NCBI GenBank assembly: GCA_947625575.1
Contig: CANQOV010000004.1
Coordinates: 1 to 56,252, forward strand
From: an uncultured Bacilli bacterium
GTDB taxonomy: Bacteria; Bacillota_I; Bacilli_A; RF39; UBA660
Length of the DNA stretch: 56,252 nucleotides
Direction of reading: 5' to 3'
Position 1 is the first letter of the stretch, and every line of letters begins with the position of its first letter. Below, in pieces: positions 6,723 through 50,781 of this stretch. A model generated the notes under the pieces. It was not told the origin of the DNA, made no database searches, and saw only the letters and a program-made list of their open reading frames with translations. The translations under genes were made by a program, and so were the position numbers.

Positions 6723-8516
6723 CTAATCTTCTACTTTTAAAATACTTAAAAATGCTTCTTGTGGCAACTCTACATTACCAATCATCTTCATCTTCTTTTT
6801 ACCCTCTTTTTGCTTCTCTAAAAGCTTTCTTTTTCTAGAAACATCTCCACCATAACACTTAGCCAACACATCTTTTCTCATCGCTTTAACCGTTTCTCTT
6901 GCTATAACTTTACTAGATATTGCTGCTTGAATTGGCACTTCAAATAACTGTCTTGGTATAATCTCTTTTAAAACTTCACAGATCACTCTTCCTCTTTGAT
7001 AAGCAAAATCTTTATGAACAATAATACTTAAAGCATCAACAACTTCTCCATTAATTAAGATATCTAACTTTTCCAAATTACTAGTTTTATAACCAATCAT
7101 CTCATAATCAAAAGAAGCATACCCTTTAGTAAGACTCTTTAACTTATTAAAAAAGTCATAAACCACTTCTGATAAAGGTAATTCATATAATATATTTACC
7201 CTAAGACTATCAATATAACTTAATCCTAGATAAATACCTCTTTTATTTTGACATAATTCCATAACTTGACCAATATAATCTTTTGGTGTAAAAATACTAG
7301 CTTTAATATATGGCTCTTCCATTAACTTAATCTTTCCTTTATCAGGCATTTTACTAGGAGAAGAAAGAAAAATAACTTGATTGTCAGTTTGTGTTATCTT
7401 ATATATTACCGATGGTGAAGTTGCAATCACATCTATATTAAACTCTCTTTCTAGACGTTCTTTTGTAATATCCATATGTAATAATCCTAAAAAACCACAT
7501 CTAAATCCAAAACCCAAAGCTTTAGATACTTCAGGTGTATACTTAAGTGAAGCATCATTTAAAGTCAATTTTTCCAAGGCTTCTTTTAAATCTTCATACT
7601 TCGTAGATTCCATAGGATATAACCCTGAATAAACAAATGGTTTAACCTCTTTATAACCAGGAAGTGCTTCTTTAGCAGGTTTATCTTTAAGAGTAATTGT
7701 ATCTCCTACTTTTACATCTTGAATACTTTTAATACTAGCAGTAACAAATCCAACTTCTCCAGCACCCAAGCAATCAGTTAAAACTTCATATGGTGTATGT
7801 TTTCCAACGTTAATAACTTCATAACAAGCTTTAGTTTCCATCATCATAATAGTATCTTTTGGCTTAATTGATCCTGATTTAACCCTAACTTGCACCACTA
7901 CACCACGATAAGCATCAAAATAAGAATCAAAAATAAGAGCTTTAGTAACATCTTCATCTACTACAGGACTAGGTATTTTTTCTACTACACTATCTAAAAG
8001 TTTATCAATACCAGTTCCCTCTTTAGCACTACATAAAATAATTTCTTCTTTTTTAAATCCTAAATTATCTTCAATTTCTTTAATAACTCTATCTACATCA
8101 GCATTAGGTAAATCAATCTTATTAATAACAGGAATAATCTCTAAATTATTATCAATTGCCAAATATAAATTAGCTAAAGTTTGAGCTTCAATTCCTTGAG
8201 TTGCATCAATTAATAAAATAGCACCCTCACAAGCCGCTAAAGACCTACTAACTTCATAAGTAAAATCAACATGACCAGGAGTATCTATTAAATTAAATAA
8301 ATAATCTATTCCATGATAATTATATTTTAAAGAAACAGCATTAAGTTTAATTGTTATGCCTCTTTCTCTTTCAATATCCATAGAATCTAATAATTGATCT
8401 TTCATCTCTCGCTTAGAAATAGCATTGCATCGTTCTAATATTCTATCTGCAATTGTACTTTTTCCATGATCAATATGTGCAATTATGCAAAAATTTCTAA
8501 TATGCTGTGTATCCAT
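6723..8516 (-). CDS. lepA: elongation factor 4
   Basis: '[16 protein letters not shown]', 'DTPGHVDF', '[11 protein letters not shown]'; start placed at ATG 8516 after GGTGA. Confidence 0.98.
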
Positions 8517-23117: not shown

Positions 23118-24092
23118 TTAATTTTGCATTAAAATATGTTGACCTTTAACTAATTCATAATTAATTAAATCTTTACTATCTAAATTTTCTTTATGCATAT
23201 CAACACAAGTTATTTGACTATTTTCATAAGTTGTATAGTAATAAAGTCCTTTATCCAAATTACAGCAAGAGCTATAAATAGTTATCTCATATTGACCATT
23301 ACCCATATGAACACAACCTCTTTGTTGTTCTACAGATCCCAAAATATGGAAAAATTGACTGATACTTTCTAATTCATCATCTTTTGATAAAGAATTCATT
23401 TTAGTAAAAGTTGCTTTTACAAAACGTGATGCTGATGACAAATCTCCAGGTAATCCTAAAGCTCCCATACCACGACTATAAACATCAAAATTTAATTTTT
23501 TTGAAAAATTATTACTTGGTTGTTCAATAGATAATCCCATATAATTATTTAAATTAAACATCTGCATATCAAAGCAAGGATTATTAGTAAGCACTCCAAC
23601 AGGGTTATCGTATACTTTTAAACCCTCTAAAACGCACTCCACTACTACAGAACTATTTTTGTCTGCAATTATCCAGTGCAAAGGAGAAACAGGCAATTGT
23701 TCACTAAAATTTATATCAACTAAATTTATTTTATTTAATAATTCTTTAGCTTCTGATAAAGTAGCACACTGTGATAAAATCCATGGAATAAACTCAAAAG
23801 GAGCCACATTATCTTTACCATCAACTTCATCTTTATATTTGGCATTTTTTGGAAAATTTAATCCAGCCATACCTAAACCCTTTTCATTAATAGCATCATA
23901 ATAAAGTGGATAATTATCTGAAACATAAGCCATGCCAATAATAGCATAATGTTTATTAATATTACCAACTTTTCTAAATTTAAAATCATAATTTCTAGGT
24001 GTTATTGTAACTGTTTCCTTATATGAATATTCTAAATCTAAATTTCTTCCAAAATAATGATCTTTTGTATTATAAGTTATAGCTGTACACAT
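23118..24092 (-). CDS. bsh: choloylglycine hydrolase (bile salt hydrolase)
   Basis: N-terminal nucleophile 'MCTA', 'GRNLD', 'NEKGL', 'LTNNP', 'GLPGD.SS.SRF'. Confidence 0.92.
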   Translation of the reverse strand: MCTAITYNTKDHYFGRNLDLEYSYKETVTITPRNYDFKFRKVGNINKHYAIIGMAYVSDNYPLYYDAINEKGLGMAGLNFPKNAKYKDEVDGKDNVAPFEFIPWILSQCATLSEAKELLNKINLVDINFSEQLPVSPLHWIIADKNSSVVVECVLEGLKVYDNPVGVLTNNPCFDMQMFNLNNYMGLSIEQPSNNFSKKLNFDVYSRGMGALGLPGDLSSASRFVKATFTKMNSLSKDDELESISQFFHILGSVEQQRGCVHMGNGQYEITIYSSCCNLDKGLYYYTTYENSQITCVDMHKENLDSKDLINYELVKGQHILMQN

Positions 24093-24150
24093 AAATATTA
24101 CCTTCTTTCATCTTAGTAATTTTATTATAACATAAAATATTATCCCATGA

Positions 24151-24328
24151 AAAAACTTCATCATAAGGTGAAGTTCTGCATTTTCAACCGGGATTATTTA
24201 TTACTCGCTAGCCACCCGGAAGCGAAAAACACCGTCGACCGGGATTATTTATTACTCGCTAGCCACCCGGAAGCGAGAAACATTTTCAAATGCAATATAA
24301 GTATATAATATTTTTATGAAAATATCAA
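24151..24328 (-). ncRNA. orphan type III antitoxin (CptI-like) unit: promoter + 2.2 x 51-nt repeats + terminator
   Basis: repeats 24178-24288 near-identical to 27204-27314; TTGATA-17-TATACT promoter; terminator at 24151-24175; no toxin downstream. Confidence 0.8.
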
Positions 24329-24420
24329 ATATTATTAATTTTTGACTTATCTATTTTCTTTTTGGTTGCAATCTATAATAAGATTGAAATAAAATATATA
24401 AAACTAAAAGTTTATTACAG

Positions 24421-24518
24421 AAAAATAGGGCTCCATCAATTAGACAGTGCCCTTGCAAAAATGATTTAACATTTTTTCCTCACATAAATAAATATAACAC
24501 GAAATTATAATATGTCAA
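24421..24518 (-). ncRNA. short transcription unit (sRNA or 10-aa peptide MLNHFCKGTV)
   Basis: TTGACA-16-TATATT with TGn, GAGG RBS, ORF 24472-24440, GC hairpin 24427-24453 plus T-tract. Confidence 0.4.
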
Positions 24519-24745
24519 ATATTATTTGATTATCTCAATATTTTTTAAATTATATTTTATTTTAAATTTCATTATTCAATAAAAAATCAATTAAATTTAA
24601 ATGTATAATTCCTTTGCATGATAAATCAATTTTATCTAAAGAAATAACATACATAAACTTTCTTTTTCTTTCCAAAATTATCTTAGAAAAAACATAATCA
24701 AATTCAGCGATTAATTTTTGCTTCCGTTTTTGTTTACAATATTTT

Positions 24746-25996
24746 TCAGTACTCTAAACTATTTGGGTCTAGTAAAAAATCAAATATATTCATCATTATT
24801 ATTCCATCTTCAGTTCTAGTCCTTTTTATGTAGTCTTTTACAATTATAACTTTTTTAAAAGAATCATTAATTTTTAAAAGTGGTCGTTCTTCCTGTTTAA
24901 TTTTTTCTTCATTTGGCATACTAAATGCTGATTGAATATATATTTTATTATTTCCTTTATTTGCAACAAAATCCACTTCTAATTGCTTATAAATATATTC
25001 ATTTTCATTTTTGTCTTTTAATTCTATAAGACCAACATCAACATTGTATCCTCTTCTCTTTAATTCTAGATATATAACATTTTCCATAATATGTGTTTCT
25101 TCATGTTGCCTAAAGTTAATAAAAGAATTGCGGAGTCCTAAATCACTAAAATAGTATTTGTTAGGAGTACTTATATATTTTTTCCCCTTTACATCATATC
25201 TTTCAGCCTTTTCTATTATAAATGCTTCTTCTAAATATTTTAAATACAAGCTTATTGTTTTGTGATCAATATTTATTCCTGCGGTTGATTGAAAGGTATC
25301 CGAAAGTTTCTTGGGATTAGTAAGTGAGCCAATATTGGAAGAAATTATCTCAATCAAATTAACTAATTTACTATCATTTTTTACATTATTTCTTTCAATG
25401 ACATCATTAACATAAACATTTTTTTGTTGTTCTTTTAAATAAGCCTTTTTTCTTTCATCACTATTCATTGAAACAACTAGTGGTAACCCACCATAAGTTA
25501 TATATTCAACCCAACCATCAAGTTTATCTCCATCATATACCGACATAAATTCAGAATATGATAATGGATATATTCTAATTTCTTCGCCTCTTCCTCTAAA
25601 TTCAGTAATTATATCACTAGATAAAAACTTTGAATTACTACCTGTTACATAAATATCAATATTTGGTATTCGCAAAAGACCATTTAAAACTCCTTCAAAA
25701 TTTTCACATTTTTGAACTTCATCTAGTATTACATAATATATTTTTTCATCTACTATTTTTTCTTTAATAAATTTACTTAAATTTTGTGGAATTAATAAAT
25801 ATTCATTATCAGAATCATCTAATGCTATTGATATAATATGATCTTTTGACACATTATTATTTAACAAATATTCATAAAATAATGTATTAAGCAAATAAGA
25901 TTTACCACATCTACGAATTCCAGTAACAACTTTGATAAGACCATCATTTTGTGCTTCAATAAGTCTATTTAAATAATAATCACGATTTATTCTCAT
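24746..25996 (-). CDS. AAA ATPase (AAA_14 + DUF4143-type)
   Basis: 'TGIRRCGKS', 'ILDEVQ', 'VTGSNS', 'KYYFSDLGLRN', 'EVDFV'; start at ATG 25996 after GAGAGG. Confidence 0.88.
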   Translation of the reverse strand: MRINRDYYLNRLIEAQNDGLIKVVTGIRRCGKSYLLNTLFYEYLLNNNVSKDHIISIALDDSDNEYLLIPQNLSKFIKEKIVDEKIYYVILDEVQKCENFEGVLNGLLRIPNIDIYVTGSNSKFLSSDIITEFRGRGEEIRIYPLSYSEFMSVYDGDKLDGWVEYITYGGLPLVVSMNSDERKKAYLKEQQKNVYVNDVIERNNVKNDSKLVNLIEIISSNIGSLTNPKKLSDTFQSTAGINIDHKTISLYLKYLEEAFIIEKAERYDVKGKKYISTPNKYYFSDLGLRNSFINFRQHEETHIMENVIYLELKRRGYNVDVGLIELKDKNENEYIYKQLEVDFVANKGNNKIYIQSAFSMPNEEKIKQEERPLLKINDSFKKVIIVKDYIKRTRTEDGIIMMNIFDFLLDPNSLEY

Positions 25997-26052
25997 ATTG
26001 ATTTTCCTCTCAGTTATCATTATACTCCTATTTAATAAAATTATCATTTAAT

Positions 26053-26092
26053 TATTCCCAAAAAAACTCCAAAGTTGACTTTTTTGGGAATA
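26053..26092. promoter_or_regulatory. 13-bp perfect inverted repeat upstream of the ATPase
   Basis: TATTCCCAAAAAA-N14-TTTTTTGGGAATA. Confidence 0.5.
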
Positions 26093-26113
26093 CAAATAAT
26101 TATCATATATAAC

Positions 26114-26222
26114 AAAAATACCTAATCTCTTAAAAGAAATTAGGTAGATTGACTCAGGGCTTCATAAGTTTCCTGAATACTAATCGTTATAAACTGTATC
26201 ATATATTTATATATAAAGTCAA
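26114..26222 (-). ncRNA. candidate hairpin small RNA, copy 1 (with promoter and terminator)
   Basis: TTGACT-18-TACAGT with TGn; 39-nt stem-loop 26147-26185; terminator 26119-26146. Confidence 0.55.
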
Positions 26223-26289
26223 TACATCTTTTATATTAAATTTATATAATATTTTTGAAATTTTTGCTGCTTCTATTATTTATCCAGTC

Positions 26290-26350
26290 TTTCTTTAATT
26301 GCGGCTTGTACCACAATCTCATTCGGGATGAATAAGATTAAATTTTATAA
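26290..26350 (-). repeat. att-like copy 3 of ppdK 3' core plus conserved arm
   Basis: TTTCTTTAATTGCGGCTTGT (26290-26309) + ACCACAATCTCATTCGGGATGAATAAGATTAAATT. Confidence 0.85.
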
Positions 26351-26408
26351 ATTTACTAATGACTAATGCTTTCAATACTATTAATTATACCACTTTCAAT
26401 TCAAAATT

Positions 26409-26490
26409 AAAACCTAGTTATTAAAACTAGGCTCTCAATGGCCTAGAGCTTCAAAAGTTTTCTAGGCACCACTCGATATATAATATACCA
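26409..26490 (-). ncRNA. candidate hairpin small RNA, copy 2
   Basis: TGnTATATT; 39-nt stem-loop 26436-26474 covarying with copy 1; terminator 26413-26431. Confidence 0.55.
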
Positions 26491-26526
26491 TGTTTATATA
26501 AATTATATTTTTGATTTTATAATATC

Positions 26527-26553
26527 AAAAAAGACTAAGTTTCCTTAGTCTTT
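26527..26553 (-). terminator. intrinsic terminator after the alternative ppdK end (KQGE*)
   Basis: AAAGACTAAG-GAAA-CTTAGTCTTTTTT on minus strand. Confidence 0.75.
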
Positions 26554-26576
26554 AATCATATATTATTCTCCTTGTT

Positions 26577-26637
26577 TTTCTTTAATTGCGGCTTGTACCA
26601 CAAACTCATTTGGGATGAATAAGATTAAATTTATAAA
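26577..26637 (-). repeat. att-like copy 2 of ppdK 3' core plus conserved arm
   Basis: TTTCTTTAATTGCGGCTTGT (26577-26596) + ACCACAAACTCATTTGGGATGAATAAGATTAAATT. Confidence 0.85.
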
Positions 26638-26667
26638 ATATTATTTTTAAAATGACTTATTTGCAAT

Positions 26668-27135
26668 TTACTTCATTTCTTCTAACATTTTTTCTTTTAG
26701 TTTGTCTATATCCGTGAAAAATAAATTTGTGCCTCTCTTTTTTAATCCTATCATATTTTTAAATAAACTTTTAATTTCATTTTGCAAATCTGTTGAAACT
26801 CTTAGTGGTACTCCATCAACAGTATGAACATGGTCTATATATTTTTCTAGTGTTGGAAAAGCATTTTGTAATAAAATAGCAGCATCTTCATCGGCAATTT
26901 TTCTAATAATTATAGTATTACAAAATCCATACTTCTCGACTTTTTTATCAATAATCTTTTGATATTTATCAACTTTAGAACTAATAGGAATAAACCATAA
27001 AATATTTTTATCTTTAATTGTAAAATAAGTAGGTCTCTTCTTTCCTTTTTCATGATTTTGCATTAAATTTTCATCATTAACGACATCAAAATATTCATCT
27101 TTGATGTGATATAAATAACCTGTTTTTATTTTCAT
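26668..27135 (-). CDS. type III toxin-antitoxin toxin, CptN-like endoribonuclease
   Basis: 'G.LYHIKDEYF...LMQN.E...RP.Y...LWFIPISSKVDKY...LLQNAFP'; preceded by tandem repeats and terminator. Confidence 0.85.
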   Translation of the reverse strand: MKIKTGYLYHIKDEYFDVVNDENLMQNHEKGKKRPTYFTIKDKNILWFIPISSKVDKYQKIIDKKVEKYGFCNTIIIRKIADEDAAILLQNAFPTLEKYIDHVHTVDGVPLRVSTDLQNEIKSLFKNMIGLKKRGTNLFFTDIDKLKEKMLEEMK

Positions 27136-27176
27136 TGTCATCAACTCCATAAAAAGTATACCACAAAGCAAAAGAA

Positions 27177-27364
27177 AACTCCACCTTACGATGAAGTTAT
27201 TCTACATTTTCAACCGGGATCACTTATTACTCGCTAGCCACCCGGAAGCGAGAAACATTGTCGACCGGGATTATTTATTACTCGCTAGCCACCCGGAAGC
27301 GAGAAACATTTTCACACTTTTTCAAGTGCAACATAAATATACTACATTTTTATGAAAATGTCAA
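27177..27364 (-). ncRNA. type III antitoxin RNA (CptI-like): promoter, 2.2 x 51-nt repeats, terminator
   Basis: TTGACA-17-TATATT; repeats 27204-27314 with H-type pseudoknot (CTCGCT/AGCGAG, CCGGG/CCCGG); terminator 27177-27198. Confidence 0.88.
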
Positions 27365-27397
27365 ATAGTATACATTAATAGTATATTCATTTTCAAT

Positions 27398-30028
27398 TTA
27401 TTTATCCATTTTTTCTTTAATTGCGGCTTGTGCAGCAGCAAGTCTAGCTATTGGTACTCTAAATGGACTACAAGAAACATAAGTAAGTCCTATATTATGA
27501 CAGAACTCTATAGTTGATGGATCTCCACCATGTTCTCCACAAATACCAAGTTTAATATCAGGTCTTACACTCTTACCCTTACTAATTGCAATCTTCATAA
27601 GTTCTCCAACACCCTCTTGATCAACTTTAGCAAATGGATCAGATTCAAAAATACCTTTTGTATAATAATCACTTAAGAACTTTGTAGCGTCATCTCTTGA
27701 GAATCCATAAGTCATCTGTGTTAAATCATTTGTACCAAATGAGAAGAATTCTGCTTGAGTAGCAATCTTATCAGCAGTTAAAGCTGCTCTTGGAATTTCA
27801 ATCATTGTACCAACATGATATTCTAATTTAGCATTAGAATTTTTAATTATTTCATCAGCAGTTTCACAAACTATATTTTTAACATATTTTAATTCATTAA
27901 CATCTCCAACTAACGGAATCATTATTTCAGGAACAACATTTAATCCCTCTTTATTTACATTAAGTGCAGCTTCAATTACTGCTCTTGTTTGCATTTTAGC
28001 TATCTCTGGATAAGTAATTGATAAACGGCAGCCTCTATGACCCATCATTGGATTAAATTCTTTTAATGATTCAACTCTTGCTTTCAATGCTTCAAAACTC
28101 ATACCTAGACTTTCTGCAAGTGGTTTAATCTCTTCATCAGTATGAGGTAAGAACTCATGTAAAGGTGGATCCAAAAATCTAATTGTAACCCCATAACCTT
28201 TCATAGCTCTAAATAGACCCTCAAAGTCACTTCTTTGATATGGTAAAATCTTTTCAAGAGCCTCTTCTCTTTTTTCAACACTGTCAGCAGTAATCATACG
28301 TCTGAAATTGAAAATTCTATCTTCTTCAAAGAACATATGTTCTGTTCTACACAAACCAATACCTTGAGCTCCAAATTTACGTGCTTGCATTGCATCTTTT
28401 GGACTATCAGCATTTGTTCTAACCATTAATCTTCTATTCTTATCTGCCCAATCCATAAATACTTCAAAATCACCTGAAATACCTGGCTCAACAGTTTCTA
28501 TTTTTTCTCCATAAACATTACCTAAAGATCCATCTAAACTCATCCAGTCTCCCTCATGATATACTTTGCCATCTTTAGTAGTCACTGTTTTCTTTTCTTC
28601 ATCAATCTTTAATTCACCACAACCAGAAACGCAACAAGTACCCATACCACGTGCTACTACTGCAGCATGTGAAGTCATACCACCACGTACAGTTAAAATA
28701 CCATGAGCAAGATTCATACCTTCGATATCCTCTGGACTTGTTTCAAGTCTTACAAGAAGCATATCTTTTTCTCCCTTGCTACTAGCTTCCATAACATCTT
28801 TAGCAGTAAAATAAATCTTACCTGTAGCAGCTCCAGGAGAAGCAGCAAGCCCTTTAGCAACAACAGTAGCTTTCTTAAGAGCCTCTGGATCAAAATTTGG
28901 ATGTAACAACTGATCTAATTGTTTAGGCTCAACTTTAAGAAGAGCTTCTTCTATAGTAATCATACCTTCTTTTACTAAATCAACAGCAATCTTAATAGCA
29001 GCTTGTGCTGTTCTTTTACCATTTCTAGTTTGAAGCATGAATAAATGTCCATCCTCAATTGTAAATTCCATATCTTGCATATCTTTATAATGATTCTCTA
29101 AAATATCACAAATCTTAACAAATTCATTATAACAATCTGGCATAACTTCTTTTAAAGTATCAATAGATTGTGGTGTACGAATACCCGCAACAACATCTTC
29201 TCCTTGGGCGTTCATCAAATATTCCCCAAACAACTTCTTCTCTCCAGTTGCAGGATTTCTTGTAAATGCAACACCAGTTCCAGAAGTATTACCTCTATTA
29301 CCATATACCATTTCTTGAACATTAACAGCAGTACCCCAACTAGATGGTATATCATTTAACCTACGATATGTAATAGCTCTTTCATTATTCCAAGATCTAA
29401 ATACTGCTTTAATAGCTTCCATAAGTTGTACTTTAGCATCTTGTGGGAAATCACACCCAGCATGATTTTTATATTCTTTCTTATAAATTTCTACAACTTC
29501 TTTTAAATCTTCACTAGTAAGTTCTGTATCATATGTTACATGTTTTGCTTCCTTTATTTCATCAAACTTTCTTTCAAAAGATGACTTTGGAAATCCCATA
29601 ACAACATCAGCAAACATTTGAATAAATCTTCTATAACTATCATATACAAATCTAGGATTTTGTGTAGTTTCACTAAAACCTACAGCAACTTCATCATTTA
29701 ATCCCAAATTTAATACAGTATCCATCATACCAGGCATTGATGCTCTAGCACCACTTCTTACTGATACTAATAAAGGATTAGTTTTATCTCCCATTTTTTT
29801 ACCAGTAACTTTTTCAAGTTCATCAAGTTTTTCCATGATTTGACTTACTATTTCTTCATTAATAGTCATATCATCTTCATAATACTTTGTACAAGCTTCA
29901 GTTGTAATAGTAAACCCTCTAGGAACAGGAAGTCCAAGTCCAGCCATCTCAGCTAAATTAGCACCCTTACCTCCTAAAAGATTACGCATATCCTTATTGC
30001 CTTCTTTAAAGTTATAAACGTATTTCAT
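27398..30028 (-). CDS. ppdK: pyruvate, phosphate dikinase
   Basis: 'LLGGKGANLAEM', 'VSVRSGA..SMPGMMDT', 'GGMTSHAAVVARG', 'GICGEHGGDP'. Confidence 0.98.
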   Translation of the reverse strand: MKYVYNFKEGNKDMRNLLGGKGANLAEMAGLGLPVPRGFTITTEACTKYYEDDMTINEEIVSQIMEKLDELEKVTGKKMGDKTNPLLVSVRSGARASMPGMMDTVLNLGLNDEVAVGFSETTQNPRFVYDSYRRFIQMFADVVMGFPKSSFERKFDEIKEAKHVTYDTELTSEDLKEVVEIYKKEYKNHAGCDFPQDAKVQLMEAIKAVFRSWNNERAITYRRLNDIPSSWGTAVNVQEMVYGNRGNTSGTGVAFTRNPATGEKKLFGEYLMNAQGEDVVAGIRTPQSIDTLKEVMPDCYNEFVKICDILENHYKDMQDMEFTIEDGHLFMLQTRNGKRTAQAAIKIAVDLVKEGMITIEEALLKVEPKQLDQLLHPNFDPEALKKATVVAKGLAASPGAATGKIYFTAKDVMEASSKGEKDMLLVRLETSPEDIEGMNLAHGILTVRGGMTSHAAVVARGMGTCCVSGCGELKIDEEKKTVTTKDGKVYHEGDWMSLDGSLGNVYGEKIETVEPGISGDFEVFMDWADKNRRLMVRTNADSPKDAMQARKFGAQGIGLCRTEHMFFEEDRIFNFRRMITADSVEKREEALEKILPYQRSDFEGLFRAMKGYGVTIRFLDPPLHEFLPHTDEEIKPLAESLGMSFEALKARVESLKEFNPMMGHRGCRLSITYPEIAKMQTRAVIEAALNVNKEGLNVVPEIMIPLVGDVNELKYVKNIVCETADEIIKNSNAKLEYHVGTMIEIPRAALTADKIATQAEFFSFGTNDLTQMTYGFSRDDATKFLSDYYTKGIFESDPFAKVDQEGVGELMKIAISKGKSVRPDIKLGICGEHGGDPSTIEFCHNIGLTYVSCSPFRVPIARLAAAQAAIKEKMDK

Positions 30029-30250
30029 TTAATCTCTCCTTTATACATTTAATTGTTTAGCACATTTACTATTTTATCAAAAACAACAATGAAATACTAC
30101 ATTTTTTTAATAAAAAACAAAAATATTTTACATAATAAAAATAGTTTATCAAAACAAAACCAAATTATAACTTTTGCTTAACTTCAACATATAGTTAACA
30201 AATCGTCTTTATAATAAAGGCAAAAAAGGAAAAGTATAAGGAGAAATATA

Positions 30251-30598
30251 ATGTTAGAAAAAAGAATATATGAGCAAAGGAAAAAATTAGGTCTAACTCA
30301 AAAAGATCTAGGAGATGCACTTGGTGTTTCCAAAGTAAGTATTTGTTACTGGGAAAAAGGAATCAAAAAACCAAGTACTAAAAACCTAATTGAATTAACA
30401 AAAATATTAAATGTTTCATTAGAATACTTAATTGGTAATGATGCCTATGTTGTTGCAAGTGAAGATGAATCTTATGGTCTTATGATGACTAAAGAAGAAA
30501 TAAATGTAATCGAAGAATTAAGAAAACATCCAAAACTATATGATATGTTTACCGAAAGTCCTAAAAGAGTTCTAGATAGAATAAGTAAAAATTATTAA
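30251..30598 (+). CDS. XRE-family HTH transcriptional regulator
   Basis: 'RKKLGLTQKDLGDALGVSKVSICYWEKG..KP'. Confidence 0.9.
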   Translation: MLEKRIYEQRKKLGLTQKDLGDALGVSKVSICYWEKGIKKPSTKNLIELTKILNVSLEYLIGNDAYVVASEDESYGLMMTKEEINVIEELRKHPKLYDMFTESPKRVLDRISKNY

Positions 30599-30639: not shown

Positions 30640-32436
30640 CTATAGACCTCCACCAGATCCAAAAGACTCTAACTCTTCTTGAGTTAAAATAACACTCATC
30701 CTCATCCTTCTATTACCACAGACAAACAAAGCATCTCCTTGAGAATAACGTTTAATACTTTCTTTCTCATTATCATTTAAATCAATTAATAAAGCCAAAT
30801 CTTCAACAGCTTGTTTCTTAAGACCCATAACTAAGTAATAAGCAGCATTGTCAAATATTGCTTTACCTTGAGTAATAACACTAGAAGGAGTAAAATCACT
30901 AGGTTGTTGAGTAATAATAATATTACCAGTATTATACTTACGACTTCTTCTTTGCATCTGTGCTAAGAAATCAGCACCTAACACATTACCACCAGAAAGT
31001 AAAACATGTGCTTCATCTACCATCATAACAGTATTAATAGAAGAATCTAAGCATAAACTCCATGCAAACTTCAAAATATTGAAAAACAAAGCATTTCTAA
31101 CATTAACATCTGCGTTCATAAGTTCTCTTATATTAAATGCTATAAAATTACTATTTGGATGAATAGTAGTATGACCATTAAAATAAAATCTAAGCTCATT
31201 AGTAAATGGTCTAATCTTAAGTTCAAGACGTTCCATAACATCTCTTTCATGAGTCATATCAGTCATCGAAATAAGTTTACTTTTAATAGTAGTATAAACA
31301 TCATCAAAAGTTGGATAATTTTCAGATTGATAAACAGAAAAATCTGTATTAAAATCAATACCAAATCTTCGATAAGTTTCTTGTACCATCTCTATAAAAA
31401 CATTTAATACATCTTCTTCAATCGAAGGATCATAATACTTCATAAAAGCCTTTAAAAATTGTAAAGTCTTCGTAAGAACAGTATAACCAAGTCCCTCTTT
31501 AACCTCATCTTCATCAGCATCAATTAAAACTTCCAAAGGATTAATAAGTCCAAACTGTCCACCTTTTCCAAGATCAATAGCATCTCCTCCAAATAATTCT
31601 ACCATCTCACGCAACTCATTTTCAGGATCTATTGCTACAACTTGATAAGAATTTCTTAAAGAAGATCTAACCAATAACTTAGCAGCAGTACTTTTACCAG
31701 ATCCAGAAGTTCCTAAAATAATCATATTAGCATTATTACGATTATCTCTACTGTGATCTCCTTTTACTTGATAGAAGAATTGATTAAATAACACAACACC
31801 ACCAGAAAAATCTGTTCCAAGTAAAGTAGATGGTCCTGGATCTTTTAAACTATCAAATATAAATGGATACATCCCCGCCATCGTAGGAGAAGGTATAATT
31901 GTTCCAATTCTATCTTCAATATCTTGTTTAGGGAAAAAAGGTAAAATAGATTTTAAAACTTTTTCCATTTCAAATCTTAAAGGAACTGCTCTTAATCCCA
32001 TCGCTGTTAAATAATTCTTAACTTGAATCTTTCTTACTTCCAAATCTTCTTTACTATCAGCACTAAGTACTAAATGCATTTGAAAATCAAAAATCTTAGA
32101 ATTTGCTGCCGCTAATTGCTGAACAAACTCTTCCAAAGTATCATAATCTTGTCTTAATCTTTCTTGAGTAGTTCTATCTTTTTCTTCAGAATATCTATTT
32201 CTTAAACTAGCAAGCTCTTTATTCAACATCTTAGATAAAGTAGAAAAAGGTACAGGAATATGTTTAACAACAATCTTAACCCCAGGCATATTAGTAATAT
32301 TAGATAAATAACCTACCCCAATACTTCTTGGATAAGATACACAAGTTAAAATAGTCATATACTTTCCACTAACAACTATATCACTAGCTCCAAACTCAAG
32401 TCCTTTTGGAGCAATTGCACTCTTAAATAAACTCAT
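30640..32436 (-). CDS. VirB4-like T4SS/conjugation ATPase
   Basis: Walker A 'ILGTSGSGKS', 'AIDPENE', Walker B 'MMVDEAH', 'RRSRKYN', 'ITQQ'. Confidence 0.88.
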   Translation of the reverse strand: MSLFKSAIAPKGLEFGASDIVVSGKYMTILTCVSYPRSIGVGYLSNITNMPGVKIVVKHIPVPFSTLSKMLNKELASLRNRYSEEKDRTTQERLRQDYDTLEEFVQQLAAANSKIFDFQMHLVLSADSKEDLEVRKIQVKNYLTAMGLRAVPLRFEMEKVLKSILPFFPKQDIEDRIGTIIPSPTMAGMYPFIFDSLKDPGPSTLLGTDFSGGVVLFNQFFYQVKGDHSRDNRNNANMIILGTSGSGKSTAAKLLVRSSLRNSYQVVAIDPENELREMVELFGGDAIDLGKGGQFGLINPLEVLIDADEDEVKEGLGYTVLTKTLQFLKAFMKYYDPSIEEDVLNVFIEMVQETYRRFGIDFNTDFSVYQSENYPTFDDVYTTIKSKLISMTDMTHERDVMERLELKIRPFTNELRFYFNGHTTIHPNSNFIAFNIRELMNADVNVRNALFFNILKFAWSLCLDSSINTVMMVDEAHVLLSGGNVLGADFLAQMQRRSRKYNTGNIIITQQPSDFTPSSVITQGKAIFDNAAYYLVMGLKKQAVEDLALLIDLNDNEKESIKRYSQGDALFVCGNRRMRMSVILTQEELESFGSGGGL

Positions 32437-33116
32437 AAAGGCATCACCGTCCCAGATTCATACTTCGTTCCACCATTTAAGAAATTATCAATAATAGTTC
32501 GTAAATCCTCATTAGAAGTTTGACTAGCAACAAGACCTGCACCAGCCAAACCATTAATCATATCCCTTACTCTTTTTTGTAAAACATCCATTTTCTTATC
32601 TTTAAATAACAAATAATACTCCGTATCTACTACATTATTATTCTTAAAATAATCTCCCTTATCCATATCTTGAGATATAATCTTTCTTAAAGTCTGATCA
32701 GCAGTCTTATTATATAAAAGTTGTAACTCTGCTTGATACATAGCTATATCAACAGGTCTATCTGCAACAACTAACCAAAACTCATAATTAATAGTATTAT
32801 AAAAATTCATAAGACCAATAAGAGTATTATCCATACTAGATCCATCTAAAATAAAAATATTTTTAGGTTGAATCTTAACTCCAGTAACCATATCTCCACT
32901 ATCATTATAAATAATTCCATTAGAAATAGTCTTTACATTAATCCAGTTCTCTGTATACTTTGGATCATTTTTAACACTCTTAGGCATAATCTTCTTTGCA
33001 ATACCACTACTAGATTTACCACTTTGAACTTTATTAACAGAATTAGCATTAGCTACCTTTGCACCACTAACCATTGTCTGTTTAACTTGTCCATCATTAT
33101 TCATCTGATTGTTCAT
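32433..33116 (-). CDS. T4SS-associated protein (PrgI C-terminal / VirB4 N-domain-like)
   Basis: 'WINVKTISNGII', 'VKIQPKNIF', 'EYYLLF'; overlaps both neighbours. Confidence 0.55.
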   Translation of the reverse strand: MNNQMNNDGQVKQTMVSGAKVANANSVNKVQSGKSSSGIAKKIMPKSVKNDPKYTENWINVKTISNGIIYNDSGDMVTGVKIQPKNIFILDGSSMDNTLIGLMNFYNTINYEFWLVVADRPVDIAMYQAELQLLYNKTADQTLRKIISQDMDKGDYFKNNNVVDTEYYLLFKDKKMDVLQKRVRDMINGLAGAGLVASQTSNEDLRTIIDNFLNGGTKYESGTVMPL

Positions 33117-33417
33117 ATTGATAACACCAACCTCTCCAAATATATCTTCTTCTATTCTTAAAAAAATATCTATATACCTCTAATAACAAGATCCTTGAAT
33201 TATGATAATTAGGTATTGGAAACACTAAAAATGCTCCCACAATAGCAGGTAATAAAGTAACAACGACACCCCATAACTCAGTAACAGGCAAAATAGCAAG
33301 TAAAATAAACGTTGCCCCAACAGCTACACAAATAATAGCCAAATCAATTGGTAACAAAAAACCAAAAATTAAACTTTGCTTCTTACTGTTAGCAGGTACC
33401 AAATATGTTTGATTCAT
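33097..33417 (-). CDS. PrgI/VirB3-like membrane protein
   Basis: 'YLVPAN.K...LIFGF...DL', two TMs, 'RRRYIWRG'; between pilin and ATPase. Confidence 0.65.
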   Translation of the reverse strand: MNQTYLVPANSKKQSLIFGFLLPIDLAIICVAVGATFILLAILPVTELWGVVVTLLPAIVGAFLVFPIPNYHNSRILLLEVYRYFFKNRRRYIWRGWCYQYEQSDE

Positions 33418-33444
33418 AAACAACCTCCTCTATTCTTATAAAAA

Positions 33445-33750
33445 CTAACCAATACCACATGTACCATTACTAAAGCCAATAAGTCTTAAAAAGACATTAA
33501 CTAACAATGGAATAAAAAATATAAGTAACCCAATAACGATTCTTTTAATTGCTCTTGTTTGTGCAGCTTTCATATCATCTTCTTTTCCAGCAACAACAGC
33601 TTTAACAAAATCAACCACTACCAAAATAAGAACTAAAACTGGTACAACAATCATAATAATATTACAAGCTTCCTGTAAAGTTGCAGCCAAACCACCTGCT
33701 TCCAAATCTTGACAAGTCAACATAAATAAAGATAAAAAATTAAAATTCAT
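33445..33750 (-). CDS. VirB2/TrbC-like pilin
   Basis: two hydrophobic helices flanking 'DFVKAVVAGKEDDMKAAQ...KRI'; Cys near both termini. Confidence 0.7.
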   Translation of the reverse strand: MNFNFLSLFMLTCQDLEAGGLAATLQEACNIIMIVVPVLVLILVVVDFVKAVVAGKEDDMKAAQTRAIKRIVIGLLIFFIPLLVNVFLRLIGFSNGTCGIG

Positions 33751-33841
33751 AACACACCATCCTACACTATTTACATAACAATTATAACAATTTTAAAAAT
33801 AAATAACAATACATAAATAAAAAAGTTTCAAAGAAACTTTT

Positions 33842-36800
33842 TTATTTTCCACTAGAAGAATTTCTTGCATCATTTGCAGCCTGATTTTTAATAACATCTG
33901 TGTTATTTTTAATTGCATTTATTTCAACATCAATATTACGGCGTTTTTGCTCTGCAGCTCCAACAGCATCAAACGCAGTTGAAACATTAACAATTTTTTC
34001 ATTTCCAATTCCAGTTAAATCTCTAACAACTTTATTTTCTCTATGCAAAGATTGCATATTTTGAACACCAGCAGATAAAATTCCGGCCGTCTTATCACTA
34101 TATTCTATATTTTTAACATAATCTGCAACATCAAAACCACTTGCACCATGATTAAGTAAAACATTAGAGACACGTTCCTGAGCATATGCATTAAAACTTT
34201 TGCCTTCATGATTTCTTGCATATGCATCAGCATCAAGTGATCCATCAGCCTTACGATATTTGTAAGCATCCACTAAAAGATCACCATACTCTTTTTGAGC
34301 AGCTTTTTTTTGATTAGTCTTAAATATAGGATTACCACTTTTATCTCTTACATTTAATATATCTTGTGTAACAGCATCAGCTTCAAGTGCTTGATCCATA
34401 GCTGATTTTGTCTCGCCACCTTTTTTCAATTCATTACTTTGAAGTTCAAGTGCATGTATATTATGTGAAGCTCTTGTTGCCTTATCAAGTCCTACTCTTC
34501 CAAGTGTAGCCGCAGTAAGTTGTTGTTTAAATCCAACACCTTGATTATAAGCGTTTCTTCTTGTTCTATTAATAGCTTGAGTACGTTTGCTACCAGCAAG
34601 TAACTTTCCTTTTGCACCACCACCAGCACCACTCAATGCCGAAACTGCAACATTACCAAGTCCATATCCGAAAGCACCTAAACCAACGCCTAAACTACCA
34701 ATAACGCTTCTACCATTTCGTCTAGCATTTGCAAAAGCAGCACCAGCAGTGAAAGTATTTTGACCTAAGCCCATGCCGCTAGCTATAGCAACACCAGCAC
34801 CAATTCCTAATCCTGCTTTAACCATATTATAACTATCTTTAAATGTACTAGATCCTTCTACACCAAACAATCTACTAATTAAATTAGGAACAGTTTTTAT
34901 AAATACAAGCTCACCCATCATAACAAATATAATTCCAATACCAAGATCATCAAAATTAGCAGTATTAGTAATAGCAGATAAGAAAGCAGCACCAGCCTCA
35001 ATTGCAATCAACTTAAAAAATAAATCAAGATAAGCACTTGCATACATTTTTACCCACGAATTGAAATTTTTATCCGAAGGATTAATATAACTAATAATTG
35101 GAATTGGTGCCATAATTTGTAAAATCCATATTTTCAAATTACGAACTACAACTTCAACACAAATTGTAGCAAGAACAGTAACAGCTAAAATACAAAAAAC
35201 AATAGCAAACAGCCAATCCAAATCAACCTGTTTTTTCTTATATAGTGTCGCAAATTCTTCAATAGTATCAGAAGTATTTAAATAAGCTTTTCTAACACTT
35301 ACAGCAGTTGCATTATCTTTATTTCTAACTGAAGTAAAACCACTCATCAAACTTCTAGCAAAATCAATACCACAATAATTTCTACCGCAATCACTAATGA
35401 CATCAGAATCTATATATCCTTCGCCAACTAACTCTTTAACATCATTTTTTACATTTTCATCATCTGGACAAACATTTTGATACATATCAAGCACATATTG
35501 AGCTTTAGCTTTAGGAAATGTGGCTTGATCATAATTAGTAAAACCAGAATATCCAGAAGTATTTTCTCCTGTATTTAACCAACCTTCGGAATCAAATAGA
35601 ACTTCCCCGTCTTTATTATCATTAACAGTACAATTAAAACCACTTCCGGGATGACTACAAGTTAAACCTATAATAGAATTAGGGCAAACATGTCTATCCA
35701 AATTGGAAATAGCATTAGAATCAAACCAATTATTAGACCTTCTAATAACTCCGTTAGGTATATCTAAATTACTGCCACTAGGAGAAGTTATTTCAAAATC
35801 CCAGTAAACCAAACCCGAAAATTTTGGATTACTCATCTTAGTTTTTGTAAAAACAATATGTACACGATTTGAATTAGACATAGCTAAAGTATAATTACTA
35901 TTACAATATTGCCTATCACCATCTAAATTTGCTAAATTAGAATTAGTATCTCTATAAATATAATCACACTCAAATTTTTCCTCTACTTCTAAATGTTCTC
36001 CAGTATTTTCATCAACCGCATCAGAATTAAATATTACATTTTCGCAATCCTTTTTATCACCATTTTTGCATAAATAAAATTTAGAATCAAAATTAAACTC
36101 TGACATACCACTAACAATGTTTGATTCTGTATCCATTAAACACTTTGTATCATTACAAGCATCAGGAATTCCTACACTAAAACAAGCTTCTTTTCCACCA
36201 CAAGCACTAGGATTATCTTGCCACTGATACTTTCCGTCACTTTCAACAGTCATAAACTCTTTAAATCTATTAATAAAATTCGTTAAACTGCAACCATCAT
36301 AAGCCTCAGCAAAAACTTTAAACTGTGGACCCATATATTGATTATTATATGCATTATCTACCCATTGAGAGCCTGTACCATTACCATAATAATCTTCAAA
36401 TGTGCCAAACTTACCTGCAACATTCCAAGCAAGCCAAGCATATGTTTCTGCACCTTTATAAGAATCTGTACAAGATATACCTATATTAGATTCATTAACA
36501 TCAGCAGAAACATTAACTAATAAATTGTTATCATCTAAATTTAAAGTTTGATTTTTTTCAAAAATTTTATCTATAATACCACTGTCCAAAATACTATCTT
36601 CAAATCTTTTTAAAAATGGGAATATAAAACTTTGTAAAGTTAAAAGAAGTGCAAACGAAACAACTATTCTTACTAAGAGTTTACCTGCTCCAACTTGTTT
36701 ATCACTAACCTTTTCAGGGTCAATCAAATAATTTAACATTGCAACAAGAACTCTAAATAGAACAAATATTCCAACAACAACATAAATACTTGTTGACACT

Positions 36801-36937
36801 TGCATAACTAATTGATTATCGTAACTAAATAATTCATTTAATTTAAGCATCATATCATAAGTACCAGCAAGCATCCCTCTAAACATACCACCAATACTAG
36901 TACCTAAAAATTCCTTTATATTAAACAATAAAAACAT
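33842..36937 (-). CDS. giant VirB6/TrbL-like membrane protein with Cys-rich extracellular insert (paralogue 1)
   Basis: N-terminal TMs, 'VVVRNLKIWILQIMAPI..ISY.NP....F..W.KMY..AY.DLF' core, Gly/Ala-rich tail; start ATG 36937 (MFLLF, as paralogue 3). Confidence 0.7.
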   Translation of the reverse strand: MFLLFNIKEFLGTSIGGMFRGMLAGTYDMMLKLNELFSYDNQLVMQVSTSIYVVVGIFVLFRVLVAMLNYLIDPEKVSDKQVGAGKLLVRIVVSFALLLTLQSFIFPFLKRFEDSILDSGIIDKIFEKNQTLNLDDNNLLVNVSADVNESNIGISCTDSYKGAETYAWLAWNVAGKFGTFEDYYGNGTGSQWVDNAYNNQYMGPQFKVFAEAYDGCSLTNFINRFKEFMTVESDGKYQWQDNPSACGGKEACFSVGIPDACNDTKCLMDTESNIVSGMSEFNFDSKFYLCKNGDKKDCENVIFNSDAVDENTGEHLEVEEKFECDYIYRDTNSNLANLDGDRQYCNSNYTLAMSNSNRVHIVFTKTKMSNPKFSGLVYWDFEITSPSGSNLDIPNGVIRRSNNWFDSNAISNLDRHVCPNSIIGLTCSHPGSGFNCTVNDNKDGEVLFDSEGWLNTGENTSGYSGFTNYDQATFPKAKAQYVLDMYQNVCPDDENVKNDVKELVGEGYIDSDVISDCGRNYCGIDFARSLMSGFTSVRNKDNATAVSVRKAYLNTSDTIEEFATLYKKKQVDLDWLFAIVFCILAVTVLATICVEVVVRNLKIWILQIMAPIPIISYINPSDKNFNSWVKMYASAYLDLFFKLIAIEAGAAFLSAITNTANFDDLGIGIIFVMMGELVFIKTVPNLISRLFGVEGSSTFKDSYNMVKAGLGIGAGVAIASGMGLGQNTFTAGAAFANARRNGRSVIGSLGVGLGAFGYGLGNVAVSALSGAGGGAKGKLLAGSKRTQAINRTRRNAYNQGVGFKQQLTAATLGRVGLDKATRASHNIHALELQSNELKKGGETKSAMDQALEADAVTQDILNVRDKSGNPIFKTNQKKAAQKEYGDLLVDAYKYRKADGSLDADAYARNHEGKSFNAYAQERVSNVLLNHGASGFDVADYVKNIEYSDKTAGILSAGVQNMQSLHRENKVVRDLTGIGNEKIVNVSTAFDAVGAAEQKRRNIDVEINAIKNNTDVIKNQAANDARNSSSGK

Positions 36938-36959
36938 AACACACACTCCCACTATTATC

Positions 36960-36988
36960 AGTATAGCCCCCCCCCCGACCTTTGTCAA
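36960..36988 (-). promoter_or_regulatory. sigma-A-type promoter with G10 tract in 17-bp spacer
   Basis: TTGACA-AAGGTC-G10-C-TATACT. Confidence 0.8.
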
Positions 36989-37116
36989 CAATTAAACAAA
37001 AGAAATCTGAAAGAAATCTCCCAGACTTTTAAATTTAATAACAAATAACAACATATAAATTCAACATAAAAAGAGCAAGCAGATTTTTTGAAATTTCTTG
37101 CTCCTGAACAATTTTA

Positions 37117-49896: not shown

Positions 49897-50781
49897 CTAA
49901 TTATCAATACTCTTACCACTTCTAGGATGTGTTTTAAAATAAACATTTTTCAAATGTTCATTAGTAACATGAGTATATATCTGTGTAGCCTTTAAAGACT
50001 CATGCCCCAATAACTCTTGAACACTTAAAATATCACACCCCTCATTTAATAAATGAGTAGCAAAAGTATGTCTTAAAGTATGAGGAGAAATCTTTGTTTT
50101 AAAAGATGCTTTCTTAATAATCTCATCTAATATATATCTAACACCCCTAGTAGTAAGTTTTTCCCCTCTATTATTTAAAAATAAATAGTCACATTTTTTA
50201 TCTAACATATTAATATACATATTTAAATACTTTAAACAGACATCTTCAAAAAAAACAATTCTTTCTTTATTCCCCTTACCCAATATTTTTATTTGTTTAG
50301 AAGAAAAATCAATATCACTAAACTTAATATTAACTAACTCTGAAACTCTAATACCAGTAGCATAAAGCATCTCTAAAATAAGTCTATTCCTACACCCATT
50401 AACTGTTGAAGTATCAACACTATCAAATAAAGAAACAAGTTCATTATAATATAAAAACTTTGGTAAAGCTTTCTCTACTTTAGGAGAACTAACAAGACTA
50501 AAAAAATTAGTTTTAACAATGCCATTACCCACTAAATACTTATAAAAACTTCTAACTGAAGACAAAATCCTATTAATAGACTTACTAGATAATTTTTTCT
50601 CATCCAAATATAGAAAAAAATTAGTAATTTGTCGATACTCAATATTTTTATAATCAATACCATATTTAACAAAATATTGATCTAAAAGACTTAAATCTTC
50701 TCTATAACTAATAATAGTATACTCTGAATAATTTTTATTAACTTTCAAATATTCTAAAAAACTATCTATTTCTTTTTTCAT
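49897..50781 (-). CDS. xerC: tyrosine recombinase XerC-like
   Basis: 'LYATGIRVSEL', 'GKGNKER', 'HTLRHTFATH', 'LGH', 'TQIY'. Confidence 0.9.
   Translation of the reverse strand: MKKEIDSFLEYLKVNKNYSEYTIISYREDLSLLDQYFVKYGIDYKNIEYRQITNFFLYLDEKKLSSKSINRILSSVRSFYKYLVGNGIVKTNFFSLVSSPKVEKALPKFLYYNELVSLFDSVDTSTVNGCRNRLILEMLYATGIRVSELVNIKFSDIDFSSKQIKILGKGNKERIVFFEDVCLKYLNMYINMLDKKCDYLFLNNRGEKLTTRGVRYILDEIIKKASFKTKISPHTLRHTFATHLLNEGCDILSVQELLGHESLKATQIYTHVTNEHLKNVYFKTHPRSGKSIDN

Follow-up and report, generated by a model that had tools for sequence, protein, structure and literature searches.

Tandem mini-cassettes behind ppdK in an uncultured gut Bacilli bacterium: a probable attachment site of elements using a large serine recombinase

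The window analysed here is a 56,252-nt stretch of DNA (contig CANQOV010000004.1) from an uncultured Bacilli bacterium whose genome, designated G000, is a 1.15-Mb assembly of 75 contigs (GCA_947625575.1). It carries ppdK, the gene for pyruvate phosphate dikinase, and directly behind it two small cassettes bounded by copies of the gene's own 3' end. Since ppdK lies on the minus strand, downstream means toward lower coordinates. Other genomes are given G numbers, and their contigs and loci C and L numbers. The features on which the argument rests are the following.

27398..30028, minus strand: ppdK (pyruvate phosphate dikinase), open reading frame (ORF) of 876 aa with Pfam matches to PPDK_N, PEP-utilizers and PEP-utilizers_C
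27412..27431, minus strand: core copy A, attL-like, within ppdK (codons AQAAIKE), then tail 27398-27411 (KMDK, stop)
26597..27411, minus strand: cassette 1, 835 nt start to start; tail, cptI promoter-like region, cptI repeats, terminator-like hairpin, cptN, arm
27204..27305, minus strand: predicted cptI antitoxin RNA repeats, 2 x 51 nt, 92%
26668..27171, minus strand: predicted cptN toxin gene, longest ORF 167 aa; matches PDB 4rmo and NCBIfam CptIN
26597..26667, minus strand: arm B, the non-ppdK right end of cassette 1; conserved 36 nt at 26597-26632
26577..26596, minus strand: core copy B, then tail 26563-26576 (QGE, stop) and a ppdK-type terminator at about 26527-26553
26310..26576, minus strand: cassette 2, 287 nt start to start; tail, terminator, promoter-like stretch, hairpin RNA with its own terminator, arm C
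26395..26484, minus strand: candidate small RNA of cassette 2; 12-bp hairpin, conserved 13-nt loop, terminator stem (fold)
26310-26365, minus strand: arm C, right end of cassette 2
26290..26309, minus strand: core copy C, then tail 26276-26289 (RLDK, stop)

The docking site is the final 34 nt of ppdK. A 20-nt string within it, the core, is present in three exact copies without mismatch (plus-strand reading at the coordinates above), spaced 835 nt (A to B) and 287 nt (B to C) start to start. The string found no match in 100 shuffles, and no fourth copy occurs in the whole G000 assembly at up to two mismatches. Read in the ppdK frame, the cores A, B and C lead into the C-termini QAAIKEKMDK, QAAIKEKQGE and QAAIKERLDK, respectively, each ending in a stop. 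The original prediction, made from the letters of this stretch, had claimed the triplicated gene end, the lengths of the two intervening units and the in-frame alternative C-termini, and all three claims hold. The same is true of the non-ppdK arm of about 40 bp that it had assigned to the two downstream copies: B and C are 96% identical over 56 nt (the core and a 36-nt arm) and 86% over 79 nt; copy A shares just 22-34 nt with them. An imperfect palindrome pointed out in this arm, ATTCAT-N5-ATGAG, does exist in both arms B and C, but it is not conserved in same-class arms of other genera and is therefore probably not the key feature. No further arm copy was found in G000 by blastn-short. The tail and terminator of core B are homologous to the native ppdK ends of G021 (80.6%, 93 nt) and of G015.

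Judging by profile and structure matches, cassette 1 is a type III toxin-antitoxin system, CptIN, in which a CptN-family toxin is preceded by tandem RNA repeats. The cptN ORF aligned to the CptN structure 4rmo with an E value of 1.3e-22 and scored 164.4 bits against the NCBIfam CptIN equivalog, the cut-off of which is 90; together with the two 51-nt repeats, this bears out the earlier naming of the unit as CptIN. The same ORF had no match in Pfam or PADLOC. The ATG start is probable near 27135-27147, given that the PDB alignment begins at residue 16 and given the homolog in G205. Cassette 2 contains no ORF of at least 30 aa on the ppdK strand, and it is plausible, by analogy, that its RNA is antitoxin RNA cargo. 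Both cassettes carry promoter-like hexamers of their own, as far as can be read from the sequence, and neither holds an integrase or conjugation genes.

Past core C, the following further features were recognized.

26105..26215, minus strand: second solo hairpin RNA unit (post-C RNA) right after core C; promoter-like stretch, hairpin, terminator
24746..26047, minus strand: AAA_14/DUF4143 ATPase gene (Pfam); PADLOC candidate defence family PDC-S01, E 1.2e-120
24345..24400, minus strand: possible degenerate fourth junction (D); arm remnant with decayed core and tail, weak similarity judged by eye
24152..24335, minus strand: orphan cptI array; promoter-like stretch and two repeats, no toxin gene

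To compare strains, we used Logan contigs from four runs of four studies of animal gut samples, ignoring joints with one side under 30 letters. Between 28 and 30 of 30 bins of the region had depth in the four runs, and records 11 and 26 cross junction B. As the contigs of four independent studies cover the region, the triplicated core is not a mis-assembly, which the original prediction had named as a way in which it could fail. Forms without cassettes were also present. In a contig of run X8 (1527 nt, depth 11.3), position 27410 is joined to 26098 via 50 other letters, so that both cassettes and the post-C RNA are missing and the AAA_14 gene stands directly behind ppdK. In a contig of run X1, 27410 is joined to 26557 via 16 letters, and only cassette 1 is missing; this joint is weaker than that of X8 (depth 6.8, with a shorter side of just 31 letters).

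These data bear on the simplest alternative, namely that the locus arose by local duplication (slippage or unequal crossing-over) or from mis-joined reads, with no mobile element involved. The 96% identity of arms B and C, and the fact that small-RNA units of one family come after both, would fit such an origin. However, the three units differ in content, tails and terminators, the two small RNAs belong to different subtypes in an alignment of 24 copies (see below), the independent contigs of the four studies cover the region, and the same architecture is met in many genera. We regard local duplication as highly improbable.

The same cassettes were found in other genera. The cassette 1 module (26667-27393) has counterparts in G205 and G006 (both 85% identical) and in G011 (83%); in G006, cptIN is sited elsewhere and not behind ppdK. 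G050, which belongs to another genus, matches cptN and its arm (26601-27120) with 96.3% identity across 520 nt. What follows the arm there is a ppdK end of another, host-type form (..AAQVAIRGNENK, stop) and then a post-C type RNA, cassette 2 being missing. In G205, again of another genus, a single contig holds the end of a post-C-type RNA (96% over 53 nt), an arm-core junction, the RNA of unit 2 with arm and core (85.6% over 202 nt) and cptIN (85.3% over 734 nt). Window positions 26292-26490 correspond to 442-643 of G205:C90, and unit 2 there precedes cptIN. Modules and orientation are thus alike in G205 and G000, but their order is opposite. In G002, of the same genus as G000, similarity ends at 27417, inside the core, and an unrelated terminator and a NUDIX-like gene come next. 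The content downstream of ppdK, the comparison of which had been proposed with the original prediction, therefore does differ between relatives, be it by unrelated DNA (G002) or by other neighbours or order (G050, G205).

We surveyed 401 genomes of the family with an exact 15-nt core pattern, taking the reversed pattern as a control. The pattern occurred in 89 genomes, 27 of which had two or more matches, while the control gave two matches in all 401. Together with the units of G050 and G205, these multi-copy cores answer the earlier question of whether arm and core recur in related genomes. In 17 of the 27, the copies lie on one contig and strand, and in G080 the second match falls inside ppdK (both read from the table). 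The largest arrays comprise seven copies on one contig (G019), five (G158) and four plus three (G414). Each extra copy has the form of a 40-60-nt arm, the core, three to eight codons, a stop and usually a ppdK-type terminator. About eight arm classes were distinguished, which recur across genera with unrelated cargo; the class of G000 is common to G266, G245, G053, G179, G337 and G019:C29. A scan of 56 genomes for their own tail as a 14-mer revealed true repeats in four (G000, G019, G046, G053), the remaining matches being A-rich chance hits.

In 33 of 93 sequences, 64 cassettes could be delimited, a set partly picked for arrays and hence giving no frequency. They measure 287-21984 nt, half of them at most 1289 nt, and the arrays include single-gene cassettes of 0.5-1.3 kb. 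Nearly all cassette ORFs are co-oriented with ppdK. The cargo consists of helix-turn-helix proteins with KilA-N or Bro-N partners, Abi_2, deaminases, NUDIX and GNAT proteins, an APH-family phosphotransferase, ABC/FtsX transporters, an ABC-F protein, a CAAX protease and Imm33. The APH cassette is 99.0% identical over all of its 1173 nt in G158 and G046, members of two genera, and its neighbours differ on both sides; three more cassette pairs are 87-92% identical over essentially their full length. Since near-identical cassettes stand beside other neighbours in different genera, they behave, on this sequence evidence, as discrete transferable units ending at the core. Irregular forms were also seen. 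In L122 (G414:C33, sense 6897-6923), the core is partly duplicated in tandem with a 12-nt offset, yielding QAAIKAAIKAGKQN and a stop, and a similar duplicated form is present in a low-depth Logan contig of run X10.

A candidate enzyme was found in the first unit (9.5 kb) of the G019 array, which encodes a 541-aa large serine recombinase (LSR) with Resolvase and Recombinase domains and a weak zinc-ribbon match. Its best NCBIfam match was CcrB at 154.7 bits, far under the equivalog cut-off of 900 bits; by profile score, the ppdK-linked LSR is not a member of the CcrA/B/C families. We examined, with wide flanks, 14 loci whose LSR has an identity of 38% or more to that of G019. In 11 of them (G019, G244, G405, G221, G101, G376, G404, G332, G382, G168 and G334), the gene shares the strand of ppdK and follows it at a distance of 2-19 kb. 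Ten of these 11 elements (4.8-22 kb) are bounded by the ppdK core and an arm-core junction that starts 70-2100 nt past the LSR stop; in G405, the position of the LSR fits, and no core was detected by the pattern used. As for the other three, G408 and G114 have the arm-core junction on contigs without ppdK, and G345 has neither. Among 13 more distant LSR loci (33-43% identical to the query over the matched part, with scores below the ppdK-linked ones), none had a core within about 1.5 kb downstream, the contig of L174 stopping at the LSR stop and being uncheckable. The ppdK-linked LSRs of relatives thus have the LSR domain set, and their genes lie within an element beside one att site; an integrase gene beside the arm, which had been suggested as something to look for elsewhere, does exist in relatives.

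In all six elements that were annotated (L179, L182, L186, L187, L188, L192), the LSR is the sole recombinase, and no tyrosine recombinase is present. Each of the six opens with a protein of 152-169 aa, with helix-turn-helix matches in four, and this conserved first gene could be a regulator or directionality factor. Their cargo, of the restriction-modification or another defence type, includes restriction-modification systems (DpnII type, MvaI/BcnI type) and YobI-like ATPase or DUF4379 zinc-ribbon proteins.

Taken together, we consider it probable, with good though not full confidence, that a family of LSR-using integrative elements has its chromosomal attachment site in the final codons of ppdK (..AAQAAIK..), accompanied by tandem recombinase-less cassettes that are moved in trans. 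According to this model, the left end of each element or cassette would be a copy of the ppdK end, in which the core leads through a few codons to a stop, mostly with a ppdK-type terminator behind it, and the right end would be the 40-60-nt arm. The LSR would integrate circular units, the crossover presumably falling between the arm, core and tail of the circle and the ppdK end, so that new units would enter beside ppdK. Integration would keep ppdK intact and regenerate the target next to it. As each unit brings a faithful ppdK end with a terminator, the junction would stay a usable target and further units could accrete in tandem. Units without a recombinase would be moved in trans by the enzyme of a larger element. 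The letters of the arm just before the core vary (..GTGGT in G000 vs ..GCTGC in G050). In G000, this would have resulted in two mini-cassettes, followed by an older, partly decayed unit with the second small RNA and the AAA_14 ATPase gene, which is probably the cargo of this third unit, and then by the orphan cptI array. The original prediction had already proposed tandem integration of non-autonomous mini-cassettes at ppdK, with mobilisation in trans, and this idea gains support from the copies in other genera, the precise absences, the arrays and the LSR at the site.

Several observations weigh against this model. G000 has no LSR of the ppdK-linked clade (the best is 35% identical, on contig C31), and a close LSR homolog (E below 1e-100) was found in just three of the 27 genomes with a repeated core (G019, G101, G316). 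Only some of the about eight arm classes have been seen beside an LSR, and AAGTCATTTTAGTC, the arm-start motif of many relatives, is absent from G000 at up to one mismatch. In G011 (83%) and G018 (73%), cptIN directly follows ppdK with no detectable second core. The 11 of 14 LSR loci behind ppdK come from related genomes and were picked by LSR similarity, so that these counts are not independent trials. Finally, no circular junction was found among the assembled Logan contigs. Of the two signs of movement which the original prediction had proposed to seek in reads, empty sites were thus seen in assembled contigs (X8, X1) but circles were not.

Two kinds of candidate were considered and rejected in this connection. 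The backward joints X10 (26586 to 26305) and X2 (27389 to 26273) could have been read as circles, but they are of low depth and are explained by the near-identical arms B/C and tails A/C. Behind cptN of G011, only a weak inverted arm remnant (score 30) was found, and it was not counted as a second core.

From the absence of a ppdK-clade LSR in G000, it follows that its cassettes were presumably brought in and would be movable only by a recombinase supplied in trans; under this condition, the two cassettes may be mobile at present. With a close LSR in only three of the 27 genomes with repeated cores, arrays mostly persist without the enzyme. The earlier statement that no integrase adjoins the cassettes is correct: the nearest tyrosine recombinase, and the sole one in the window, is an Xer-like gene at 49897-50781, 22 kb away, and no LSR is present at the ppdK locus. 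G000 as a whole has five LSRs and four tyrosine recombinases. The LSR genes lie on other contigs (C31, C6, C19, C18 and C5), and two of the proteins, of 681 aa each, are 54% identical to each other.

Alternatively, the array may consist of dead remnants, i.e. one or a few large islands with a recombinase once integrated at ppdK, and internal deletions left short pieces between the surviving att copies, with no independent cassette movement. The missing cognate recombinase in G000 would agree with this, as would the decayed appearance of junction D and of the orphan cptI array, the resemblance of both small RNAs to deletion products of Abi_2 units (see below), and the truncated LSR genes that precede an arm-core junction in G019:C29 and G316:C16. 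On the other hand, the small units are also met in other genera, where their ends are unchanged and their neighbours, order or host tail differ, dozens of single-gene units pair recurring arm classes with unrelated cargo, and the X1 contig lacks exactly cassette 1. We therefore find it unlikely that the units are mere remnants. As for G019:C29, its first 3760 nt (L055, 1-3760) contain a truncated serine recombinase gene, followed by one for a deaminase and by a G000-class arm with core and terminator. This stretch does not adjoin ppdK and may be a variant of the array from another strain or else a different site.

It is also conceivable that a tyrosine recombinase is at work, either the host Xer, as for IMEX/dif modules, or a PvCTn-like integrase, and that the serine recombinases are passengers. 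PvCTn-like elements insert in the same 20-nt stretch of ppdK, according to the available part of their description (PMC11005914). Furthermore, the identity between the copies extends over 15-34 nt, exceeding what a serine integrase needs, G000 contains two Xer-like genes, and a truncated Xer-like gene lies past the G389 array. Against this, no tyrosine recombinase occurs in the six annotated LSR elements or in the annotated cassettes, and the LSR gene is fixed next to the arm in ten elements. The core is also unlike a dif site, judging by what we take to be the dif consensus, and the dif/Xer idea was dropped. The action of a tyrosine recombinase thus appears very unlikely. The Xer-like gene of G389 (L126, G389:C28, 9023-9700) is a 225-aa ORF with a partial catalytic domain, 2.5 kb after the last core, and a 95%-identical fragment of it is found at the start of G019:C29.

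Under the favoured reading of LSR-driven integration, the closest parallels are two known systems. Staphylococcal cassette chromosome (SCC) elements, pseudo-SCC elements and composite islands reside at the 3' end of orfX/rlmH and are moved by Ccr large serine recombinases, as set out in the available part of PMC6243372. The likeness lies in several traits: a single conserved housekeeping gene is entered at its 3' end, each boundary is marked by direct repeats, recombinase-less units stand in tandem with recombinase-bearing ones, and the enzyme is a large serine recombinase, here with CcrB as the best match. Measured against the same source, the target here is ppdK and not rlmH, and there is one recombinase per element instead of a ccrAB pair. 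The LSR also remains at 154.7 bits vs the Ccr cut-off of 900, the units are mostly single-gene, of 0.3-1.3 kb and co-oriented with the target, each with a replacement gene end and terminator, and the host genomes, from uncultivated gut bacteria, measure about 1 Mb.

The second parallel is provided by the ssrA-specific islands of Dehalococcoides with their CcrB-like serine recombinase DsiB, about half of which lack an integration module and were read by the authors as cis-mobilisable, as described in the accessible portion of PMC3146451. Going by this portion, they likewise form tandem islands behind a single-copy essential gene. The 3' end of that gene recurs as a 20-bp direct repeat bounding each island, every repeat is immediately preceded by a conserved motif, and there are recombinase-less units. 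They differ in their size of about 10 kb or more, in their target, tmRNA, and in having a six-gene integration module beside attL, whereas the LSR here lies at the attR end (PMC3146451, same portion). Compared with SCC and Dehalococcoides islands, the novelty lies in ppdK as the target, in units that are very small, co-oriented and single-gene, and in the spare gene end and terminator that each of them brings along.

The ppdK site itself has a precedent in the PvCTn-like conjugative transposons of gut Bacteroidota, whose attB motif, in the part of PMC11005914 at hand, spans the ppdK codons A-A-Q-A-A-I. The core at 27412-27431 covers the same stretch as the published 20-nt attB given there and differs at two wobble positions and at the start of the next codon (Lys here). 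In both cases, a stop codon is regenerated within a few residues. Those elements are large and conjugative, with their own integrase and type IV secretion system, and belong to another phylum; tandem mini-cassettes are not described in that part of the paper (PMC11005914). In the literature that our search covered, the ppdK 3' end appeared as attB for Bacteroidota conjugative transposons only (PMC11005914, in the part available), and no description of ppdK cassette arrays turned up. Because the same ppdK codons serve as attB in Bacteroidota, unrelated elements of two gut phyla would have converged on one site.

The arrays look like integrons, as the original prediction had put it, in that small, co-oriented, mostly single-gene cassettes, including toxin-antitoxin systems, are arrayed at one site. 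This part of the comparison stands; but no IntI lies beside the array, the enzyme would be a large serine recombinase of the SCC/Ccr kind and not an integron integrase, the junction is a gene-end copy with an arm and not attC, and the G000 cassettes have promoter-like sequences. The system would thus work like SCC/pseudo-SCC elements or the Dehalococcoides ssrA islands rather than like an integron, and the G000 locus is a recombinase-less example of an SCC-like, integron-looking platform in which two units carry RNA only. Most likely, we are dealing with a gene-capture system that is widespread in this small-genome gut family and is run by the LSR of bigger elements.

If so, this would represent a second route to integron-like arrays, in which a serine recombinase acts on a central-metabolism gene, and the spare gene end and terminator of each cassette leave the target functional and reusable. 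The ppdK site seems to be a major place of accessory-gene turnover in these genomes of about 1 Mb, with defence genes, toxin-antitoxin pairs, and phosphotransferase, acetyltransferase and ABC-F genes in flux. In practical terms, the pairs of arm and core with their recombinases are candidate orthogonal serine-integrase systems, and the arrays could be a source of compact defence and antitoxin modules.

The small RNAs deserve separate treatment. The hairpins of unit 2 and of the post-C unit belong to one family, with 24 copies in the loci fetched. In the 12-bp structure, 95% of the alignment cells are paired, and six of the 12 pairs have changed on both sides. The covariation score was reached by none of 500 shuffles, and slid controls were at most 57% paired; this is supportive of the structure, not proof, as the sequences are related. 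Matches to the post-C unit were found in 32 of 200 other family genomes searched. In five genomes (G052, G204, G197, G185 and G080), an Abi_2 gene of 289 aa has one hairpin in its 5' leader and another, with a terminator, behind it. Units of Abi_2 and hairpins are often the first thing after ppdK. Abi_2-flanking hairpin loci were seen in several genera (L202, L195, L199, L200, L197). The solo copies of G000, G050 and G205 combine a left flank of the 5' type with a terminator of the 3' type, with no gene between, and we read them either as leftovers of units that have lost their Abi_2 gene or as RNA genes in their own right.

A known counterpart is AbiF, whose neutralising RNA carries two hairpins of the abiF motif (PMC12373285, in the part available). 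The likeness, a conserved hairpin adjoining Abi_2 genes, is an analogy only, as the hairpin described here misses the abiF model RF03085 and the G000 RNAs stand alone without an Abi_2 gene. In Rfam, no relevant match was obtained for window positions 24000-30500 (abiF, RF03085, at E up to 1), and with E allowed up to 10, the hairpin loci L193, L195 and L202 matched no family at all, abiF included.

The orphan cptI array is 94.8% identical over 115 nt to 27200-27314, the cptI region of cassette 1, and lies directly upstream of a choloylglycine hydrolase gene (23118..24092). An additional cptI-like array was observed in G018, immediately behind its cptN. As a tentative and rather doubtful extension of the above, the family might run an integron-style serine-recombinase capture platform at ppdK in which RNA-only cassettes are kept as stand-alone antidotes against circulating toxin cassettes. 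Were this true, orphan CptI arrays and solo AbiF-type hairpin RNAs would be anti-addiction or immunity modules.

Finally, a gene cluster upstream of ppdK (30640-42973), which could be a conjugative element or a conserved uptake apparatus, encodes a VirB4/TraG-like ATPase, a type IV secretion system pilin-like protein and two TrbL-like proteins (1039 and 841 aa). It also holds a gene for a 1049-aa protein without a Pfam match and is placed between ppdK and dnaE.

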